64,000 nt of DNA from the NCBI RefSeq assembly GCF_003334405.1, contig NZ_QOWM01000012.1; one strand, written 5' to 3'. This DNA comes from Escherichia coli. Its GTDB lineage: Bacteria > Pseudomonadota > Gammaproteobacteria > Enterobacterales > Enterobacteriaceae. The notes below the pieces were generated by a model. The model searched no databases and had not been told where the DNA came from. It saw nothing but the letters and a program-made list of their open reading frames with translations. The position numbers and the translations under genes are program-made. Shown in pieces: positions 6,988-36,889 of this stretch. Every line of letters starts with the position of its first letter. The first letter of the stretch is position 1.

Positions 6988-7704
6988 TTAATTCGGATAG
7001 ACAAAATCACGAATTTTCTGCGCGATCTGTTTATTCAGTTGACAAATTCGGGCCTCGGTTAGCCCTAATACCAGCGCAATCTCTTTGAGATTCATCTCAT
7101 GCTGGTAATACATGGAGAGGATCAGTTGCTCTTTTTCGCTTAATTGTGAAAGCGCCTGTTGCAGCATTTGCTGGGTGACAAACTGATCTTCCAGCTCCCT
7201 GCCAGCAAGCAGAATGCCAGGCCCTTCGCCGTTCAGCAGTTCGTCCAGGCTGGCGAGCGTTTCCGCCCCTTCCAGTTGCTGATATTCGAGATAATCTTCA
7301 TGCGAGATCCCTTCCACGGCCAGTTCTGACCACTCCGGTTCGTGCCCCAGTTTTTTGCGCGTTTCGCGAATCAGATCTTTCATCTGATGATATTTCTGTC
7401 GCAGCTGGCGCGGTCGCCAGTCGAGAGCGCGCAGCTCATCCAGGATCGCGCCGCGAATACGGTGCACGGCATAGCCCGCAAAACCTTCGTCCGGCAGCCC
7501 GTAGCGACGGATGGCATTAAGCAGCCCCATTAACGCCGTTTGTTCCATATCCTGACGATCAATAATGCAATTACACTGCGGGGCAAGTTGCCGCACCACT
7601 TTACGCACCAACGGTAAATAGGCCTGCAAGTAGTGGCTCTCCTGCTGCGGGGTTAATACCGGCGCGGCAGCAAATTCTTCCGACTCGAATACATCCTGTA
7701 GCAT
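6988..7704 (-). CDS. lafS: lateral flagellar sigma factor LafS (FliA/sigma-28 family)
   Basis: 238 aa; sigma-70 region 2/4 like segments and C-terminal HTH (LKEIALVLGLTEARICQL). Confidence 0.85.
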   Translation of the reverse strand: MLQDVFESEEFAAAPVLTPQQESHYLQAYLPLVRKVVRQLAPQCNCIIDRQDMEQTALMGLLNAIRRYGLPDEGFAGYAVHRIRGAILDELRALDWRPRQLRQKYHQMKDLIRETRKKLGHEPEWSELAVEGISHEDYLEYQQLEGAETLASLDELLNGEGPGILLAGRELEDQFVTQQMLQQALSQLSEKEQLILSMYYQHEMNLKEIALVLGLTEARICQLNKQIAQKIRDFVYPN

Positions 7705-9987: not shown

Positions 9988-11304
9988 TTACGCGAATGCC
10001 GCCATGCTGGCTTTCATGGTGTACACCTCGACCAGCGTGTTGGTGTACTCCTCGAGATAACGGTCGTAGTTGGCGTTATAGGTATCGGTAAGCTGATCGC
10101 CTTCGTCCTGAATTTTGCTCATCTGATCGTCAATGTTCTGCTGGCGCAGGGTGATGATGCCGTTGCTGGAGTCCGTGTAGGTGTTAATCAGGTCGTCCAT
10201 CTGCGCCACCATGCTGTTGTCGCCAACGAAAATAGAGGTCAGACCGTCAGGATTTTTCGCCATTTCGTCGTTGAACTGGTCGGAGTCAATCTGTAAGTGG
10301 CCGTGAGAATCAAGCGTGATGCCATAGTCAACAATCGACACGCCGTTGTAGTTGGCATGGGCGATGTCATCGAGCTGGTTCGCCAGTGAATTGAGTCCGG
10401 CGTCGCCTGCAAATACCCCGGCGCTGGTACTGTCATCACCATGAGTAGTCAGTGAATCAACCGTATCAATCAAGGTGTTATAGGCATCGACAAAGGTCTG
10501 TACTTTCTCCTGACTGGCGCTGGAATCTTCGCTGATGTTAAAGGTAGTGAGATCGCTGTCAGAATCGCTGACTTCGGTGAAAGTCATGGTGACGCCGGGG
10601 ATCACATCATCAAATGTATTGCTGCTGTTGGTGATCTCAGGCCCTGTGGCGCTACCGAGATGAATAATCGCGTCCTGAGCGGAGGAAACATCCGTGGCAA
10701 CGGGCGCGCTGGCGCTATCGTTGCTGGCATCATGCCCCGTTACGCTCACCGAAAACGCGCTCTGCGCCCCGGTGCTATCCGAGGTGAGCATAATCGTGGT
10801 GGTGCCGTCGGTTTTTACCAGCGCAGCCGACACGCCCGGATTGTCATCGGAGTCGTTAATCGCATTCACCAGTTCACTGGCGTCGATAAAACCGTCGCCG
10901 TCACCGTTCTGATCCGCCGCCGCCAGATCAATATCCATGGTGCTGTCGCCCATGGTCATTTCGAACGTCCCCGTCGCAGAAAAGGTGTCATCACCCATAC
11001 TGAACGTGGTCTGCTGCCCCTGCGCCAGTTGTTCAACGAAAAACGAGTAGCTTCCCGCCTGCGCCTGCGAGTTAGCGGAAACGGTCGCCGAGTCATTATT
11101 GCTGGTGGCAGCGAAGGTCACCGGGCCGTCGGTATCGCTGTTTAGCGCATCCACGGCGCTCTGGAAATCGCTCAACGCCGAGCTGAGCGAGTCCAGGCCG
11201 CTGCTTTCGGCATCCAGCTCCGTTTGCTTCTCCTGCAAGTTTGCCGCCTGAGTGGCGACATCTGCATAAGCGATTTCTTGCGCAATGGTTCTTGGGTTGA
11301 TCAT
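9988..11304 (-). CDS. lafB: filament cap protein LafB (FliD-like)
   Basis: 438 aa, S/T/D-rich, conserved FliD termini. Confidence 0.8.
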   Translation of the reverse strand: MINPRTIAQEIAYADVATQAANLQEKQTELDAESSGLDSLSSALSDFQSAVDALNSDTDGPVTFAATSNNDSATVSANSQAQAGSYSFFVEQLAQGQQTTFSMGDDTFSATGTFEMTMGDSTMDIDLAAADQNGDGDGFIDASELVNAINDSDDNPGVSAALVKTDGTTTIMLTSDSTGAQSAFSVSVTGHDASNDSASAPVATDVSSAQDAIIHLGSATGPEITNSSNTFDDVIPGVTMTFTEVSDSDSDLTTFNISEDSSASQEKVQTFVDAYNTLIDTVDSLTTHGDDSTSAGVFAGDAGLNSLANQLDDIAHANYNGVSIVDYGITLDSHGHLQIDSDQFNDEMAKNPDGLTSIFVGDNSMVAQMDDLINTYTDSSNGIITLRQQNIDDQMSKIQDEGDQLTDTYNANYDRYLEEYTNTLVEVYTMKASMAAFA

Positions 11305-11486
11305 TGATGACTCCGGATAACGATGTCAGGTTATTGGCAAAAGGCGTGCCAATAATTTTTATGTGAATAATCAATAGATTGAAAAATGGGCGGAAAGGCC
11401 ATTTCCGGTCTGGTGGAAATACGCCTGCCGCAGAAAGAACAACACCGCCCGCAGGCGGTGTTGAGACTGATGACAAACGCAACACT

Positions 11487-11585
11487 GCCTGATGCGCTGC
11501 GCTTATCAGGCCTACAAGGTTTCTGCAATATATTGAATTTGCAATATTTTGTAGGCCGGATAAGGCGTTCACGCCGCATCCGGCA
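11487..11585. repeat. REP pair (BIME) between lafA and lafB
   Basis: gcctgatgcgctgcgcttatcaggcctac and gtaggccggataaggcgttcacgccgcatccggca. Confidence 0.7.
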
Positions 11586-11594
11586 AGTCCGCCA

Positions 11595-12509
11595 TTACTG
11601 CAGCAGGCTGGAAACCATGCTGGACATGCTGTTGGACTGTTTCAGCATGGTGATGCCGGTCTGCATCAGCACCTGCTGTTTGGTCATATTGGACGCTTCC
11701 GTAGCGTAGTCGGTATCCATGATGTTACCGATAGCAACTTCGGTGTTGTCCTGCATACTGGTCAGGTTATTAGCCGTGTCGTTCAGACGGTTGATAGACG
11801 CACCCAGCTTGGACTGGATCTGCGAAACATCATCCATCGCGGTAGAAATGCTGGTGATCATCTGGTTAGCCGAGCCAGACGCAGTCAGTTCAGTACCGCC
11901 AGAAACGCCTGCGGTGCCTGTGGTGTCTGCCTGATCCGCACTGAAGGAGTTGCTGATAGCAGAAAGGTCAGTCACCAGCGTGTTCAGTTGGCTAGAGATG
12001 TTCACGGTCATGGTGTCGGAAGATTCCGCGCCCACCTGGAAAGTTACCGCGCTCTGGAACAGGCCGTCAGTACCGGTGTTGCTGGTGCCGGAAACACCGA
12101 ACAGGTTGGTGCCGCCGTAGGTGGTGTTTTGCAGCATGTCAGACATCTGCTGGCCCAGTTCGTCGTATTCGTCCTGCATCGCCTGCAGATCGTCGTCGCT
12201 GTAGGTGCCGTTCGCTGCCTGAGTTGACAGGTCTTTCATACGACCCAGCACGTCAGACATTTCGTCGAACATGCTGTCGGCGGTTTGCAGCATCGCGGTG
12301 GCATCATTGATGTTGCTCAGCGCAACATCCATACCGCTGGACTGTGCTGTCAGACGGTTAGCAATTTGTTTGCCTGCGGCGTCATCGGCAGAAGAGTTAA
12401 TCCGGTTACCTGTCGCCAGGCGTTCCATAGATGTAGACAGAGAAGAGCTGCTTTTGCTGATTGCATTAACGGCGGCCATTGAGGCGTTATTGGTGTTAAT
12501 AGATAACAT
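11595..12509 (-). CDS. lafA: lateral flagellin LafA
   Basis: Start set at MLSINTNNASMAAVNA...; conserved flagellin D0 termini (N-term ...RLATGNRINSSADDAAGKQIANRL, C-term ...MLKQSNSMSSMVSSLLQ). Confidence 0.9.
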   Translation of the reverse strand: MLSINTNNASMAAVNAISKSSSSLSTSMERLATGNRINSSADDAAGKQIANRLTAQSSGMDVALSNINDATAMLQTADSMFDEMSDVLGRMKDLSTQAANGTYSDDDLQAMQDEYDELGQQMSDMLQNTTYGGTNLFGVSGTSNTGTDGLFQSAVTFQVGAESSDTMTVNISSQLNTLVTDLSAISNSFSADQADTTGTAGVSGGTELTASGSANQMITSISTAMDDVSQIQSKLGASINRLNDTANNLTSMQDNTEVAIGNIMDTDYATEASNMTKQQVLMQTGITMLKQSNSMSSMVSSLLQ

Positions 12510-12554
12510 GATACTGCTCCTTGGGATTAATCGTTTTCGTTTCGATACCCTGTA

Positions 12555-12580
12555 AAAACGACACCTCGGGAGCAAACTTA
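12555..12580 (-). promoter_or_regulatory. possible sigma-28 (LafS)-type promoter of lafA
   Basis: Coding-strand TTAAGTTT-N11-GTCGTTTT about 45 nt upstream of lafA ATG; weak -10 match to GCCGATAA. Confidence 0.25.
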
Positions 12581-12994
12581 AAACCGCCGTTAAAAAAATT
12601 TCACTGCGGTTTATCTGATGCCACTTTTAGCTAAAAAAAGCAGAGTTTAAATTCAGATAAAAAGATTATTAGCAATATCTGCCACATGGCCAGGTATCAA
12701 AATATGTCTTTATCAAACGCTTGATATAGTTAAGATTACCATCAATTAACGCGTTTTCTTCTCAATGTACTGATGCCAAAATTTACATTGCGTTGCAAAT
12801 AGTACACATTTGGCTATTGTACCTGTCCTGTCATTTCGTTACATTTCCACGCCATATAGTGATTAAGAATAATCCTATTACCATAAAATATTAATTATCA
12901 CGCAGAAAAATCATCTTCTCAGGGACGTATAAGACTGTGCTTTATGCAAAGCACTATCAGGAAACATTTATCCCTTGCTAAGGTAAACTCAACT

Positions 12995-13837
12995 ATGAGT
13001 ATTATTATCAACAACTGGCGGATGGACCCGTCGCTTAATGCCTTAATACATTGCGAAACGGGTGAAACACGTCGTCTCGGCGAATACCATTTTATTTTGC
13101 TGGAAACATTAGCAAAAAATGCCGATGTGGTTTTATCGCGATCTTATTTATGTGCCGAAGTATGGAAGAACCGCATTGTCGGCGGTAACAGCCTGCCGAC
13201 GGCGATACATGCATTACGCGTTGCTATCGACGATGATGGCAAACAACAGAACATTATTAAAACCATCCCGAAAAAAGGTTACCTGTGCAATAAAGAGTAT
13301 GTGTCTTTGCCGGAGTCATCGCCTGCGGAAGCGCTGATTATTACCAACCAGGTACAGGAAACTGTGCCAGGAGAGATATCTTCGACAACCCTGCCTGTGC
13401 CTGTTAGAAAAAAACATAAAGGACTGATGGGGTTAGCGTTGACCGCGGCTGTTATATTTATTGGCTCGACCGTGGGGTATTCACACTTGAAAAGTACACC
13501 TGACGCCCCGCAACTGGTAAAAGAGTCAATTAACAGCCCAAGAATAAAAATATTTCACCTTAGTTCTGGAAAAGAAAATAATTCCGCACCGTTACTGTCA
13601 CAAACCCTCGCACCAGGAAAAGACAAACTCGATAATTTATTGTCAGCGCATAATATGACAATGACAACCTATTATAAATATGTTCGTAACCGACTGGAGA
13701 GTGATATTGTTCTGCGCAACCAGTGCAACGGTAGCTGGCAATTAACCTTTAATGTGGATGAGTGGCAGAATAGCGATATTAATAGCGCGATGTATCAGAA
13801 TTTAGAGAAGTTGTTAAATACTGTGCAGAAGTGCTGA
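12995..13837 (+). CDS. lafZ: ToxR/CadC-like membrane-bound transcriptional regulator LafZ
   Basis: N-terminal OmpR-type winged helix (…LPTAIHALRVAIDDDGKQQNIIKTIPKKGYLC), single TM helix (GLMGLALTAAVIFIGSTVGY), periplasmic C-terminal domain. Confidence 0.65.
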   Translation: MSIIINNWRMDPSLNALIHCETGETRRLGEYHFILLETLAKNADVVLSRSYLCAEVWKNRIVGGNSLPTAIHALRVAIDDDGKQQNIIKTIPKKGYLCNKEYVSLPESSPAEALIITNQVQETVPGEISSTTLPVPVRKKHKGLMGLALTAAVIFIGSTVGYSHLKSTPDAPQLVKESINSPRIKIFHLSSGKENNSAPLLSQTLAPGKDKLDNLLSAHNMTMTTYYKYVRNRLESDIVLRNQCNGSWQLTFNVDEWQNSDINSAMYQNLEKLLNTVQKC

Positions 13838-13852
13838 TGAGTGCCAATATAT

Positions 13853-13889
13853 GCCGGATGCGACGCTAAACGCGTCTTATCCGGCCTAC
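13853..13889. repeat. REP element
   Basis: gccggatgcgacgctaaacgcgtcttatccggcctac. Confidence 0.6.
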
Positions 13890-13895
13890 CGATAA

Positions 13896-14873
13896 TTATC
13901 CCAATAAACTCCTCACCGTCTGGCTGGAAATTCGCGCCTGACCATTCACCGCCTGCAATAACACCTGATAGTTATGATTCGCGCTATCCAACACGCCGCC
14001 GAGATTTTCCGACGCCTGCACGGCGTTTTCCGTTTGCGGGAAGCGGGACATGCCGTCGATCAACTGGCGGGCTTTTTCCTGCTGCACCGCCATTTGCGCG
14101 CGCTGCTGATTAATGTTTTCTAACATCTGGGAAATCCCTGCCCCGCCCTGTTGCAGGCTTTGCGCTAAACGCTCGGCCTGCGACGGTTCGGCAAAGGTTT
14201 TTAGCGGCATAAACGCCGACTTATCACCATCGGTGCGCACGCTTAAGGTGCTTTCAATGTTGGGCCACTGCTTTTCGGTGGTGGAGAAGCTGATGCCGTC
14301 CGCTTGCTGATGCAGTTGCACACCCACGCGGCGCAGGGCGTTGGTCAGCCGCGTCTGATACTGCGCGGCGCTGTCATCCTCAGACAGCATCACCGCCGAA
14401 AGCTGAGTCTGCCGCCCGTCAGAGACGCTGAACATGCGCGTTCCCGGCGTGGGGTTGTGTACGAGATTCGCCAGATCCGGCGAGTGAAAAGTCACCCGCG
14501 CCTCGCCCTGCAACACTGGCTGCAACTGGCGGTCTACCGCACCGCCGGAAAGCGCGGTGCGTTTGTCCAGCATCTGCATCAGCGCCGTACTCTGCGCCTG
14601 CCCGCCCTTACGCTGGCTGTGACGATAATCGAGCAACTGCTGCTCCAGTTGCCCGAGGTAGTGATCCGCCTGCTGCAACGTGGTGAGCTGGTCGTTAAGC
14701 TGCACGCTGTAACGCTGCGGGCGAGTGGTAATCAGCGGCGAGGCCGGATATTCACTCGCCGTCGCCGGGAGTTTTTGCCGCACCGCCTGAGTGGGCGCAA
14801 CGGTTGACGACGATACCGCAGCGCTATGCGCGCTGCCGGTGGCGAGTGACGAAGAAGTAAGTCCGACCTGCAT
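13896..14873 (-). CDS. lafW: lateral flagellar protein LafW (function unknown)
   Basis: 325-aa ORF 16 nt downstream of lfgL in same orientation; Q-rich, no recognisable catalytic motif. Confidence 0.5.
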   Translation of the reverse strand: MQVGLTSSSLATGSAHSAAVSSSTVAPTQAVRQKLPATASEYPASPLITTRPQRYSVQLNDQLTTLQQADHYLGQLEQQLLDYRHSQRKGGQAQSTALMQMLDKRTALSGGAVDRQLQPVLQGEARVTFHSPDLANLVHNPTPGTRMFSVSDGRQTQLSAVMLSEDDSAAQYQTRLTNALRRVGVQLHQQADGISFSTTEKQWPNIESTLSVRTDGDKSAFMPLKTFAEPSQAERLAQSLQQGGAGISQMLENINQQRAQMAVQQEKARQLIDGMSRFPQTENAVQASENLGGVLDSANHNYQVLLQAVNGQARISSQTVRSLLG

Positions 14874-17210: not shown

Positions 17211-17289
17211 GTTGGATCCTTACCGGTAAATCGTGCCGGTTAAAAGCGGCGTGAAGATGGGGATTCTTAAATTCCGTAAACCGGGTGCC

Positions 17290-17505
<216 letters not shown>

Positions 17506-17513
17506 TCGGAGCC

Positions 17514-24262: not shown

Positions 24263-24278
24263 AGCAATCGCCGTGCCA
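24263..24278 (-). promoter_or_regulatory. sigma-54 (-24/-12) promoter of lfgB operon
   Basis: Coding strand TGGCACGGCGATTGCT: GG-N10-GC with TGGCAC and TTGC elements, ~35 nt upstream of lfgB ATG. Confidence 0.55.
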
Positions 24279-25125: not shown

Positions 25126-25404
25126 ATGAAAATCACCCCGACTATGCCAGGCAATCGCCCAACAACCACAACGGCAGGCTCCAGCCAGCCGCGCAAAACC
25201 ACGGCGACCACCACCACGACGCTGAGCGCCGACGACATTACTCAGGCGGGATTGCAGTCTGCCCAGCAAACGCTGAACGACCAGCAAGAGAGCGATATCG
25301 ACAGCAACAAAGTGGCGCAAGTGCAGGCGATGCTGGCGTCCGGCAGCCCGCAAGTGGACACTGAACAGTTAGCCAGCGACATGCTGAGTTTTTTCCAGAA
25401 CTAA
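25126..25404 (+). CDS. lfgM: anti-sigma-28 factor LfgM (FlgM-like)
   Basis: 92 aa, unstructured N-terminus, small acidic protein preceding flgN-like gene. Confidence 0.65.
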   Translation: MKITPTMPGNRPTTTTAGSSQPRKTTATTTTTLSADDITQAGLQSAQQTLNDQQESDIDSNKVAQVQAMLASGSPQVDTEQLASDMLSFFQN

Positions 25405-25922: not shown

Positions 25923-25938
25923 CGGCACGCTTATTGCA
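25923..25938 (+). promoter_or_regulatory. sigma-54 (-24/-12) promoter upstream of unknown gene
   Basis: CGGCACGCTTATTGCA: GG-N10-GC, one mismatch to TGGCACG-N4-TTGCA; ~35 nt upstream of ATG 25973. Confidence 0.5.
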
Positions 25939-35516: not shown

Positions 35517-36503
35517 TCAGGAGAAAACTTCGATACCTTGCTTGCGCATGGAGGCCAGTCGATAGCGCAGTGCGCGCGGGGTAATGCCTAACAGGTCGGC
35601 GATTTTGCTGCGGTTGCCCTGATATTTACGCATCAGGTCAGCGATATATTGATACTGGGCGCTTCGTCCGTGCTGGCCCAAATCGCTGGTTTCGGCAATG
35701 TGGACGGCGGGCTGAACAGGCCATTGCAGTTCGCTGCGGTCGGCAACGTCCGTTTCCGGCAGGCCTAAGGCATCCGGGTAAATCACGCCGTCGCGATTTA
35801 AAATCATTCCCCGCTGAATGGCGTTCTCCAGCTGGCGCACGTTGCCGGGCCAGCGGTAATTGAGCAGCGCCCGGCGGGTAGATTCTGAAAGGGTGATATT
35901 TTTCACCAGCACCGTGGAGTACTTTTTTATAAATGACTCTGCCAGCGGAATAATATCGTTCAGACGTTCACGCAGTGGCGGCATGGTAATAGGAATAACC
36001 GCCAGACGATAATAGAGATCTTCACGAAAACGCCCGGCAGCCACTTCCTGTTCAAGGTTTTTATTGGTGCAGGCAATCAGGCGAAAATTGAGTTTAATTT
36101 GTCGGTTGCTGCCTAATCGCTCAACCTGTTGCTCCTGCAATACGCGTAATATTTTGGCCTGTAGCGCCAGCGGCATATCGCCAATTTCATCGAGTAATAA
36201 GGTGCCGTTATTCGCTAGTTCCATTTTTCCTGGCACACTGGCAATTGCGCCGGTAAATGCGCCTTTGTCGTAGCCAAATAATGTAGCTTCCAGCATGTTT
36301 TCCGGGATCGCTGCACAGTTCACGCCGATATAGGGCGCGTTATCATTTTCACCAAAGGCTACGGTGTGAATATATTTCGCCACGCATTCTTTGCCCGCGC
36401 CGGTTTCGCCCTGAATGAGCACCGGCACGTTAAATGCGGCGACACGCTTTGCCAGAGTAAAAGCGTTAATGCTGGAAGCGGCAGTTGCAATAAGTTCAGA
36501 CAT
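35517..36503 (-). CDS. lafK: sigma-54-dependent transcriptional activator LafK (no receiver domain)
   Basis: 328 aa: AAA+ domain with GETGAGKE Walker A, GAFTGA sigma-54 contact motif, C-terminal HTH. Confidence 0.85.
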   Translation of the reverse strand: MSELIATAASSINAFTLAKRVAAFNVPVLIQGETGAGKECVAKYIHTVAFGENDNAPYIGVNCAAIPENMLEATLFGYDKGAFTGAIASVPGKMELANNGTLLLDEIGDMPLALQAKILRVLQEQQVERLGSNRQIKLNFRLIACTNKNLEQEVAAGRFREDLYYRLAVIPITMPPLRERLNDIIPLAESFIKKYSTVLVKNITLSESTRRALLNYRWPGNVRQLENAIQRGMILNRDGVIYPDALGLPETDVADRSELQWPVQPAVHIAETSDLGQHGRSAQYQYIADLMRKYQGNRSKIADLLGITPRALRYRLASMRKQGIEVFS

Positions 36504-36626: not shown

Positions 36627-36710
<84 letters not shown>

Positions 36711-36889
36711 GGTTCGTGCAATGTGTTATGACGATGCCTGATATCTAGCCCTTTAATAATTTAATTATTTTTTCATCCTATTAATAATTTGCCCCTTTCA
36801 CTCCCCCTCTATTTAATACCTCACCTTGTGTCACTGCCGGATTTGCGTGCACAAAATCGCCCATACCATTACAGCAGAGAAAGTAAGCC

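Follow-up and report, generated by a model that had tools for sequence, protein, structure and literature searches.

The intergenic region between lafA and lafZ, the genes for the lateral flagellin and for a ToxR/VtrA-like membrane-bound transcription regulator, is probably a two-way promoter region within a conserved AT-rich module composed of the gap and lafZ, ordinary for this known locus; we give this reading a probability of about 60%. The DNA analyzed here (the window, 64 kb in length) corresponds to the Flag-2 (lateral flagella) locus of E. coli. On sequence comparison, several complete E. coli genomes matched bases 11500–14000 at 100% identity, and in their annotation lafA is followed by a transcriptional regulator and then by a hypothetical protein. 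The gap is carried by 1273 of 5426 complete E. coli genomes (about a quarter), within a second flagellar system of ~38 kb. Besides lafA and lafZ, the locus encodes lafS (FliA/WhiG family sigma factor, positions 6988..7704), lfgM (anti-sigma factor, 25126..25404), and lafK (sigma-54 activator, 35517..36503), the last of which lies 23 kb from the gap. The lfgK–lfgJ gap of the reference strain has an extra 118 bp relative to the window. In an Rfam scan of positions 11000–14500, REP-derived matches flanked the lafA–lafZ unit, and no match lay inside the gap.

In the RefSeq annotation, lafA (304 aa) occupies positions 11595..12509 on the minus strand and starts at ATG 12509, whereas lafZ (280 aa) occupies 12995..13837 on the plus strand, and the two genes are divergent. 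Downstream, the lafZ stop is at 13837 and the end of lafW at 13896. The sequence AAGGAG lies 7 nt upstream of ATG 12509, this start is kept in 16 loci, and LafA aligned over its whole length (residues 1–304 of 304) with the NCBIfam model NF033376, “lateral flagellin LafA” (E = 1.8e−201). TTG 12575, which marks only the longest mechanical ORF, was rejected as the lafA start; the Shine-Dalgarno sequence, the full-length NCBIfam match, and the conservation all favored ATG 12509. Because lafA begins at this ATG, the true gap spans 12510–12994 (485 bp). A preliminary description had placed a 420-bp divergent gap at 12576–12994; a divergent AT-rich gap does exist, but its left edge was wrong, as starting at 12576 drops the lafA leader, the −10 element, the spacer, and all of the −35 element except its outermost 6 bases.

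The GC content is 0.353 over 12510–12994 and 0.337 over 12576–12994, compared with 0.535 for the whole window, so the very low GC reported earlier holds with either boundary. Only 1.3% of 484-bp segments within the 64 kb are equally AT-rich, and the TpA steps, A/T tracts, and W6 runs of the gap rank in the top 3% of the window and in the top 1% of the Flag-2 cluster. With the corrected gene table, the gap is both the longest Flag-2 intergenic region and the one with the lowest GC content, the next lowest being 0.433. lafZ has the lowest GC content among the Flag-2 genes (0.431), and the GC content over 12512–13895 is 0.407. Because the module is AT-rich and TpA-rich, it is a candidate target of H-NS/StpA; H-NS generally binds E. 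coli DNA of such composition and length, and from composition alone, silencing of the gap by H-NS is plausible. The high-affinity nucleation motif of H-NS is TCGATAAATT, and the best site in the gap, TCGTTACATT at 12836–12845, is a weak match with 2 mismatches to this motif, located within a conserved block. It is the sole site in the gap with ≤2 mismatches, a class of sites that is common in the window (71 observed vs 53 expected). A literature search found no reports of H-NS occupancy or of derepression in hns mutants for Flag-2.

To follow the gap across species, 16 orthologous loci from six genera were aligned: those of Escherichia, Pseudocitrobacter, Citrobacter, Phytobacter, and Enterobacter, and that of a MAG which was deposited as Citrobacter sp. 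and encodes a LafZ 96% identical to that of the window. The divergent lafA/lafZ arrangement was kept in 16 of 16 loci, with gaps of 436–597 bp and a GC content of 0.335–0.382, compared with 0.47–0.56 for the whole loci. Two loci at a greater distance, L022 (gap of 601 bp) and L024 (420 bp, GC 0.317), likewise kept the arrangement, length, and AT-richness; in L023, lafZ is not adjacent to lafA. The 16-locus alignment showed five conserved blocks in an otherwise unalignable gap background: the lafA promoter, an A/T tract, a central 24-bp box, the lafZ promoter with a palindrome, and a TTACATT box downstream. These blocks were conserved in genera both with and without the partner gene described below. 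In most genera, lafZ and this partner gene have a GC content of 0.39–0.45 beside a lafA of 0.51–0.56, but the gap stays at 0.34–0.38 even where lafZ reaches 0.49–0.52 (Phytobacter and Enterobacter kpr-6), which suggests that the non-coding DNA is itself under constraint. The gap thus contains conserved promoter elements for both genes and at least two further conserved boxes, in agreement with the earlier view of it as a regulatory region.

On the lafA side, a sigma-28 (LafS)-type promoter is predicted at 12555..12581 on the minus strand, with the −35 element TTAAGTTT at 12581..12574, an 11-nt spacer, and the −10 element GTCGTTTT at 12562..12555, the latter about 45 nt from the ATG. In 17 sequences from six genera, TTAAGTTT and GTCGTTTT were invariant or one base off, and the spacer drifted in sequence while its length remained 11–12 nt (11 in the window; 12 in Citrobacter and others); distant loci keep a −10-like element, G(T/C)CG(T/C)TTT. 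The E. coli FliA consensus is TAAAGTTT-N11-GCCGATAA. Relative to it, the −35 element matches at 7 of 8 positions and the −10 element at 4 of 8, with the CG core retained. No other intergenic LafS-type promoter was found in the window, and hence there is no second site from which to define a LafS consensus. Both lafS and lfgM are encoded in the same locus as lafA; the literature search found no demonstration of LafS dependence in enterobacterial Flag-2 systems. The predicted 5′ leader of approximately 40 nt (12510..12549, minus strand), which contains the Shine-Dalgarno sequence AAGGAG at 12517–12522, was the most conserved part of the gap in the alignments. A hairpin in this leader (AUCG/CGAU) was rejected, with a consensus energy of −0.33 kcal/mol and essentially no covariation. 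Just upstream of the −35 element, an A7T3 tract at 12592..12602 forms one of the conserved blocks and may act as an UP element or a bend; a hairpin at 12581–12612 in the same area was also discarded, since even the close relatives within Escherichia do not share it.

The central conserved box, ATAAAAAGATTATTAGCAATATCT (12657..12680, 24 bp), is an imperfect palindrome, AGATTAT-N4-AATATCT, located upstream of both predicted starts, by ~110–130 bp for lafA and ~150–170 bp for lafZ. It is kept in Escherichia, Pseudocitrobacter, Citrobacter, and Phytobacter and is unique in the window. Farther toward lafZ, a conserved block at 12779..12802 (plus strand) contains the palindrome ATTTACA-N6-TGCAAAT (12781–12800), whose arms are conserved and whose center is variable. 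By eye, neither the central box nor the palindrome convincingly matched the consensus sequences of CRP, FNR, Fur, IHF, Fis, Lrp, or TyrR. The palindrome block holds TTACATT at 12783–12789 and overlaps the candidate −35 element of lafZ, TTGCAA (12793–12798), which is followed after 16 nt by a candidate sigma-70-type −10 element, TATTGT (12815..12820, plus strand). Transcription would start near 12827 and give an AT-rich leader of approximately 165 nt. Both hexamers and their 16-nt spacing were kept in all loci except the most distant, Enterobacter kpr-6 (L017), with a variable spacer sequence. This promoter matches the consensus at 8 of 12 positions, which is under the threshold of the scan tool, and the matches of the generic sigma-70 and terminator scan were at chance level. 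A second reading of the same bases, TTGTAC (12817–12822)-N17-TACATT (12840–12845), is possible. Just downstream of the predicted start lies another conserved box, ATTTCGTTACATTTCCA (12833..12849, plus strand), with a second TTACATT at 12839–12845; it is a candidate operator or H-NS nucleation-like site.

The lafZ leader also contains an RcsAB-box-like site, TAAGAATAATCCTA (12864..12877, plus strand), matching the consensus TaAGaatatTCcta at 13 of 14 positions; 5 of 5 capitals are kept in the consensus as printed in PMC4325325, and 6 of 6 in a variant with a final capital A. This site, which was noticed post hoc, is the sole RcsAB match with ≤2 mismatches in the 64 kb, and it is kept with 1–2 mismatches in the Escherichia clade only, where it might be bound by RcsB. 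Several other candidates in the gap were rejected. Its small ORFs are all 21–37 aa long with TTG or GTG starts, and none is conserved; the upstream in-frame ATG 12944 was not accepted as the lafZ start, as the sequence before 12995 has indels and no in-frame conservation. There is no sigma-54 promoter in the gap at ≤2 mismatches, and TGGCAT at 12621, an unconserved sequence, has no GC at the correct spacing. The predicted folding of the lafZ leader was no better than that of shuffled sequences (z = −0.2).

These elements suggest how the two genes would be controlled. On one side, the sigma-28-type promoter, preceded by the A/T tract, would drive lafA through the ~40-nt leader; it would be read by LafS, the locus's own FliA-family sigma factor, and restrained by LfgM, with flagellin as the last tier of a cascade leading from LafK/sigma-54 to LafS/sigma-28. 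On the other side, the weak sigma-70-type promoter (TTGCAA-N16-TATTGT), ~170 bp upstream of the lafZ ATG, would drive lafZ. It sits in the palindrome and is flanked by the two TTACATT boxes, with the RcsAB-like site following in Escherichia, and all of these are likely operator sites that would tune the amount of LafZ. The central 24-bp box, between the two promoters, would be bound by some factor, and H-NS/StpA on the AT-rich module would keep lafZ expression low under laboratory conditions.

The preliminary description of LafZ as a membrane-anchored winged-helix regulator of the ToxR-like kind holds for the DNA-binding domain, for the topology, and for the periplasmic fold. LafZ has a winged helix–turn–helix without a receiver (Pfam Trans_reg_C, aa 25–97, E = 3.6e−13, the sole domain found). 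Its best NCBIfam match is the CadC N-terminus; by sequence, its top matches in the PDB are to the DNA-binding domain of ToxR (8b4b, 8b4c, and 7nmb; E = 3.4e−10), followed by CadC (1.1e−6). A single hydrophobic segment at aa 143–161 (Kyte-Doolittle 1.85) is preceded by RKKHK, so that the N-terminus is probably cytoplasmic according to the positive-inside rule. The AF2 model has a helix at 144–166 (transmembrane aa ~143–166) and a low-confidence linker at 112–139. The periplasmic domain (aa ~170–280) has the ToxR/VtrA alpha/beta fold, with VtrA as the best structural match, and C244 and C280 were invariant in 48 family representatives, down to 28% identity. The VtrA–VtrC co-crystal carries a bound bile salt. 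Among the ToxR-like regulators (ToxR, TcpP, CadC, VtrA, and PsaE), some have a co-transcribed periplasmic partner (ToxS, TcpH, VtrC, or PsaF), and CadC has none. In Citrobacter, Phytobacter, Enterobacter kpr-6, and loci L022–L027, a partner ORF of ~159 aa overlaps the lafZ stop; no such ORF follows lafZ in the window, and it is absent from Escherichia and Pseudocitrobacter. A PDB sequence search with the partner protein gave no ToxS or VtrC match. The literature search found no experimental work on a DNA target, ligand, or phenotype of LafZ.

The preliminary description had further called the gap a likely control point for the whole locus, a claim that goes beyond what we found. The lateral-flagellar hierarchy, as given in PMC4481668 with reference to Stewart and McCarter 2003, runs from LafK/sigma-54 through LafS/sigma-28 to flagellin; the predicted lafA promoter is sigma-28-type and belongs to the last tier, lafK lies 23 kb away, and the conserved boxes are absent from the rest of the window. 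Sigma-54-type sites were found upstream of lfgB, where the match is perfect, and of lafB, which heads the gene run containing lafS; lafS is presumably co-transcribed from the latter site. The gap could therefore control the whole locus only if LafZ acted atop this hierarchy. No test of this was found in the literature covered here (PMC6993521 and PMC7526173). One such scheme, modelled on ToxR at toxT, is that H-NS silences the gap until a signal from the envelope or periplasm activates LafZ, which then binds upstream of its own gene (at the TTACATT boxes, the central box, or both), displaces H-NS, and turns on the whole of Flag-2 directly or indirectly. The DNA-binding domain of LafZ is closest to that of ToxR among solved structures (E = 3e−10), and lafZ adjoins the gap in all 16 close loci. 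ToxR-family proteins act at H-NS-repressed AT-rich promoters, and ToxR antagonizes H-NS at AT-rich acquired genes (PMC4829181 and PMC12802830). The sites bound by TcpP, which also belongs to the ToxR-like family, are TGTAA (PMC12802830); on the minus strand, the conserved boxes of the gap read AATGTAA, and the distant locus L023 has a related tandem, TTACA-N5-TTACA, upstream of lafZ. A Rouxiella strain without lafZ is non-motile, although this is anecdotal (PMC6993521). However, no copies of the conserved boxes were found in the rest of the window, the lafK–lfiM gap and the other Flag-2 promoters included, so a direct LafZ regulon beyond the gap is without sequence support. Moreover, the predicted lafA promoter is sigma-28-type and not of the activator-dependent sigma-70 kind, the upper tiers are accounted for by lafK and the sigma-54 promoters, lafZ is not beside lafA in L023, and several common E. 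coli alleles have a disrupted lafZ. On balance, we regard this scheme as possible but doubtful.

Two further explanations would give the gap a lesser role, and we consider both unlikely. One is decay: the lafZ module of Escherichia would no longer sense its signal, the gap would be kept mainly by recent common descent, and Flag-2 would be silent from a broken input. The partner gene is missing in Escherichia and Pseudocitrobacter, and the best structural match of LafZ is VtrA, which is partnered with VtrC. Broken lafZ alleles, frameshifted or truncated, are common in E. coli (P0027, P0040, and P0062 with 263, 115, and 150 members, vs 2295 in the intact cluster), and some strains have IS elements that interrupt lafZ or take the place of the gap. 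LafA was undetectable in E. coli EC958, one strain with expression data, when grown in LB at 28 or 37°C, and Flag-2 was not expressed (PMC4637896). Set against this, every Flag-2 ORF in the window is intact, lafZ included, and among the 1273 E. coli genomes with the gap, 1269 have it at nearly its full length. The conservation of the blocks across genera with and without the partner likewise speaks against decay, and CadC-type family members function without a ToxS-like partner. The other explanation is a legacy of composition, in which the AT-richness reflects a foreign lafZ cassette inserted between lafA and lafW, with two independent back-to-back promoters and no silencing role. The low GC content of lafZ and its partner beside lafA in most genera fits this explanation, as do the REP elements at both flanks of the lafA–lafZ unit. 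LafZ is not known to occur in the lateral systems of Vibrio and Aeromonas. It also has no counterpart in flag-1 loci (PMC6993521). Nevertheless, the gap is more AT-rich than lafZ and remains so beside the GC-richer lafZ genes, and the general affinity of H-NS for such DNA argues against the lack of a silencing role. A more speculative proposal, which we think improbable, is that LafZ and its overlapping partner form a VtrA/VtrC-type periplasmic ligand receptor above LafK/LafS that switches on enterobacterial lateral flagella partly via the gap boxes, countering H-NS, and that deletion of the co-receptor gene in the Escherichia–Pseudocitrobacter lineage left the switch signal-blind. The ligand in this proposal would be a host or surface cue such as bile salts or fatty acids. 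If true, the loss of the co-receptor would account for the lack of observed expression from a complete Flag-2 locus in E. coli.

An AT-rich divergent promoter region before a ToxR-like regulator is expected, and the two-way promoter region described here involves no departure from known kinds of regulation. Its promoter map, consisting of the sigma-28-type promoter of lafA, the candidate lafZ promoter with operator-like boxes, and the RcsAB-like box, offers handles for finding the inducing condition, and the VtrA-like fold of LafZ together with the partner loss in Escherichia suggests a testable reason for the silence of Flag-2.

The lafA side resembles the class III sigma-28 flagellin promoters of E. 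coli fliC and of lafA in Vibrio parahaemolyticus and Aeromonas: it immediately precedes a flagellin gene that is monocistronic and has a short leader, and it has a −35 element (TTAAGTTT) near TAAAGTTT, an 11–12-nt spacer, and a CG-core −10 element, and is accompanied by sigma and anti-sigma genes in the locus. It differs in that its −10 element is GTCGTTTT instead of GCCGATAA. The lafZ side is comparable to the control region of E. coli flhDC, which is targeted by H-NS, RcsAB, and others. Both have a long AT-rich stretch before a flagellar regulator gene, and lafZ has what appears to be a near-consensus RcsAB box just past its predicted promoter; according to Francez-Charlot et al. in 2003, the RcsAB box of flhDC reportedly also lies downstream of the transcription start. 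In contrast to flhDC, the RcsAB-like box of lafZ is limited to the Escherichia clade, and a master role for LafZ is a candidate one. The closest likeness of the regulator is to ToxR/ToxS and VtrA/VtrC of Vibrio. LafZ shares with them an OmpR-type winged helix–turn–helix without a receiver, one transmembrane helix, two invariant periplasmic cysteines, an AT-rich upstream region, and, in most genera, a small gene that is translationally coupled downstream and encodes a membrane-anchored or secreted protein. Unlike them, LafZ belongs to a flagellar instead of a virulence locus, its partner proteins have no sequence match to ToxS or VtrC, and in Escherichia and Pseudocitrobacter it stands without a partner gene.

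Several complete E. coli chromosomes matched the segment at 11500–14000 with 100% identity; there, RefSeq labels its genes as lafA (lateral flagellin), "transcriptional regulator," and, for lafW, a hypothetical protein. The segment lies within the Flag-2 lateral-flagellar locus bounded by dinB and rayT. Translation was uninterrupted for all Flag-2 ORFs in the window (the coordinates allow for a 118-bp offset relative to the reference strain), and this copy of Flag-2 therefore looks complete. Strain PC6 has 118 bp more in the lfgK–lfgJ gap, which in the window measures 303 bp (17211–17513) and is GC-rich (0.564); this indel accounts for the offset. The start of lafA (11595..12509, minus strand) was fixed at 12509 because the RefSeq call, an AAGGAG 7 nt upstream, and the NCBIfam model "lateral flagellin LafA," which matched the product end to end (1–304 of 304), all agreed. 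The TTG at 12575, which yields the longest ORF, was rejected as a mechanical artefact, and the alignments gave no support to the in-frame ATG at 12944 as the start of lafZ (12995..13837, plus strand). Therefore, the true gap between these divergent genes is 12510–12994 (485 bp). The divergent, AT-rich gap given in the preliminary description as 12576–12994 is real, but its left edge, which came from the TTG, is corrected to 12510. REP/BIME-type elements flank the lafA–lafZ unit on both sides, at 11508–11605 and 13825–13886 (Rfam ES036; weak sub-threshold naRNA4 matches).

The very low GC content previously claimed for the gap is no chance fluctuation: it was 0.353 (0.337 over 12576–12994) versus 0.535 for the window, and only 1.3% of the 484-bp windows across the 64 kb were equally AT-rich. 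By its numbers of TpA steps (46), A/T tracts (12), and W6 runs (15), the gap ranked in each case within the top 3% for the window and within the top 1% for the Flag-2 cluster. Among the Flag-2 intergenic regions, the lafA–lafZ gap is the longest and has the lowest GC content, the next-lowest GC content being that of the divergent lafK–lfiM gap (0.433), and lafZ is the lowest-GC Flag-2 gene (0.431). REP-like sequence was seen by eye in the lafK–lfiM gap at approximately 36630–36720, 130–220 bp upstream of the lafK start.

A scan with the LafZ alignment against one genome per species yielded 16 loci, with four labeled Escherichia, nine Citrobacter, Pseudocitrobacter, Phytobacter massiliensis, Enterobacter sp. 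kpr-6, and one MAG (database label Citrobacter sp.) with a LafZ 96% identical to that of the window. lafA and lafZ were divergent in all 16, across gaps of 436–597 bp with a GC content of 0.335–0.382, whereas the GC content of the whole loci was 0.47–0.56. The AT-rich module runs into lafZ, which in most loci had a GC content of 0.39–0.45 versus 0.51–0.56 for the neighboring lafA; even in loci where lafZ reached 0.49–0.52, the gap held at about 0.36. Distant LafZ homologues (approximately 30% identity) in two further comparison loci, L022 and L024, were also divergent from a flagellin gene, across 420–601 bp of AT-rich DNA; the exception was locus L023, in which lafZ lies downstream of lfiJ. 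The gap was carried by 1273 of 5426 complete E. coli genomes, nearly always at full length and with 95–99% identity, and none of these carriers had an annotated feature inside it. In locus L025 (GCA_021365465.1, CP089932.1), the neighbors of a LafZ homologue and its partner ORF are a sigma gene of the FliA family and the gene of a sigma-54 activator; transposase genes surround them, and no structural flagellar genes were seen nearby. The locus may be what is left of the regulatory core of a Flag-2 system that has degraded.

MAFFT alignments of the orthologous gaps revealed five conserved blocks, (a) to (e), separated by unalignable sequence. Block (a) comprises the lafA leader with its Shine-Dalgarno sequence and −10 element (12510–12565), plus the −35 element (12574–12581). 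On the minus strand, the −10 (GTCGTTTT, 12562..12555) and −35 (TTAAGTTT, 12581..12574) were invariant or one base off in 17 sequences, whereas the sequence of the 11–12-nt spacer was free to differ, and such fixed elements around a drifting spacer are the signature of a promoter. The putative elements resemble the sigma-28 consensus, and their motif is the only intergenic instance in the window; the locus has its own FliA-family sigma gene (lafS) and anti-sigma gene (lfgM). Block (b), an A7T3 tract, lies directly upstream of the −35 (12592–12602).

In the lateral-flagellar cascade, LafK and sigma-54 activate class II genes, including the sigma-28 gene, which leads to class III, including flagellin (PMC4481668). 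The predicted promoter layout of the window fits this cascade. Sigma-54-type sites were found on the minus strand at 11351..11336 (one mismatch), 32 bp ahead of lafB, which opens the gene run containing lafS; at 24278..24263 in the lfgB–lfgA gap (perfect consensus match); and at 7204–7219 within lafS, 229 bp upstream of lafT. The first VR1 gene has a plus-strand site 35 bp upstream (25923–25938; one mismatch). The lafA–lafZ gap contained no candidate with two or fewer mismatches. There was also no match in the lafK–lfiM gap, so that lafK and lfiM may be sigma-70-driven. Because a sigma-28-type promoter belongs to the last tier, the lafA side would act as an output promoter, at the lowest level of the cascade, rather than as its control point.

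Regulation would instead be concentrated on the lafZ side, where a weak promoter would lie amid conserved palindromic and repeated boxes, followed by a leader that is long and AT-rich and that in Escherichia carries an RcsAB-like box. Block (c), ATAAAAAGATTATTAGCAATATCT (12657–12680), lies roughly halfway from one promoter to the other, forms an imperfect palindrome, and occurs once in the window. Block (d) (12779–12802, with 12815–12820) contains the palindrome ATTTACA-N6-TGCAAAT, overlapping TTGCAA, with TATTGT 16 nt further on. These hexamers and their spacing were kept, with a drifting spacer, in all loci but the most distant (Enterobacter kpr-6, L017), and TTGCAA-N16-TATTGT is a predicted weak sigma-70-type promoter toward lafZ; transcripts would start at about 12827 and carry a leader of some 165 nt. 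Because the same conserved bases can also be read as TTGTAC-N17-TACATT, the lafZ start can be placed no more precisely than approximately 12825–12855. Block (e), ATTTCGTTACATTTCCA (12833–12849), carries a second copy of the TTACATT found in block (d), 56 bp further downstream. In the Escherichia clade only, TAAGAATAATCCTA (12864–12877) agreed at 13 of 14 positions with the consensus given for the RcsAB box in PMC4325325; the five positions printed there as capitals were all kept, and no other site in the 64 kb had two or fewer mismatches. As this site was noticed post hoc, we treat it as a lead. A perfect palindrome with a 7-bp stem, GTGCTTT-ATGC-AAAGCAC (12937–12954), spans the alternative ATG 12944 in the lafZ leader; it was present in close Escherichia relatives only and was not kept in Escherichia sp. 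EC7003 or other genera. Neither Rfam matches, conserved small ORFs, nor terminators were found in the gap, and neither leader contained significant RNA structure.

Judging from its base composition and the general binding behavior of H-NS, the gap is likely bound by H-NS/StpA; the sole motif-level support was a two-mismatch match to TCGATAAATT within block (e), of a kind that is common. ToxR-family proteins act at H-NS-repressed AT-rich promoters (PMC4829181, PMC12802830), and TcpP recognizes TGTAA (PMC12802830); read on the minus strand, the TTACA core in the conserved boxes of the gap gives this same sequence. Together with a tandem TTACA-N5-TTACA upstream of lafZ in L023, this likeness makes it a reasonable hypothesis that LafZ autoregulates via blocks (d) and (e). 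The conserved boxes occurred nowhere else in the window, including the lafK–lfiM gap, and a direct LafZ regulon beyond the gap thus lacks sequence support. Given this confinement and the output role of the lafA side, the proposal that the gap controls the whole locus was not borne out. The preliminary observation is confirmed with its corrected boundary, and its interpretation is partly supported.

The evidence that the lafA–lafZ module functions in E. coli is mixed. The intact ORFs of the window, the conserved blocks, and the near-full-length gap in almost all carriers argue for function. On the other side, LafA was undetected in EC958 grown in LB at 28 or 37°C (PMC4637896), Escherichia has lost the partner gene, and several disrupted forms of lafZ are common in the species. 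Compared with 2295 members of the intact LafZ cluster, 263 member sequences carry a C-terminal frameshift (P0027), 115 have lost most of the wHTH (P0040), and 150 end before the TM helix (P0062). An IS5-family element interrupts lafZ in NCTC9040, and in EPSSH018 one stands in place of most of the gap plus lafZ. The EC958 study reported that lafWZ is missing from that strain and called the pair a putative toxin/antitoxin (PMC4637896). Among the complete genomes, 1265 of the 1273 gap carriers have at least 80% of the lafA–lafZ stretch 11500–14000, and lafZ clearly encodes a ToxR-like regulator instead.

The description of LafZ as a membrane-anchored winged-helix regulator was upheld: its only Pfam domain is Trans_reg_C (aa 25–97), and it has one hydrophobic helix (aa 143–161), preceded by RKKHK and a variable, low-confidence linker. 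The nearest solved structures by sequence were the DNA-binding domain of V. cholerae ToxR (E ~3e−10) and then CadC. The family contains about 55 full-length representatives at 50% clustering, and the periplasmic Cys244 and Cys280 were invariant across 48 of them. In Citrobacter, Phytobacter, Enterobacter kpr-6, and the distant loci (comparison loci L008–L017, e.g., L014 3929–4408, and L022–L027), a partner gene of approximately 150–160 aa overlaps the lafZ stop codon, in the place taken by ToxS, TcpH, and VtrC; it was absent from the Escherichia and Pseudocitrobacter loci, including at 13838–13895 in the window. Its product has a hydrophobic N-terminal segment; two conserved cysteines are also present in the ~159-aa forms, which occur in Citrobacter, Phytobacter, Enterobacter kpr-6, L023, and L024. 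It matched no Pfam family and, by sequence, no PDB entry, including the solved ToxS or VtrC.

The Flag-2 locus, lafA, and lafZ (as a "putative transmembrane regulator") are already described in earlier work (Ren et al. 2005, cited in PMC6993521; PMC7526173). Our literature search returned no paper testing LafZ, mapping promoters in the gap, or reporting effects of H-NS or Rcs on Flag-2. It likewise turned up no previous account of a promoter and footprint map for the gap, of a VtrA-type fold in the LafZ sensor domain, or of partner-gene loss in particular lineages. Each of these points extends well-known kinds of regulation.
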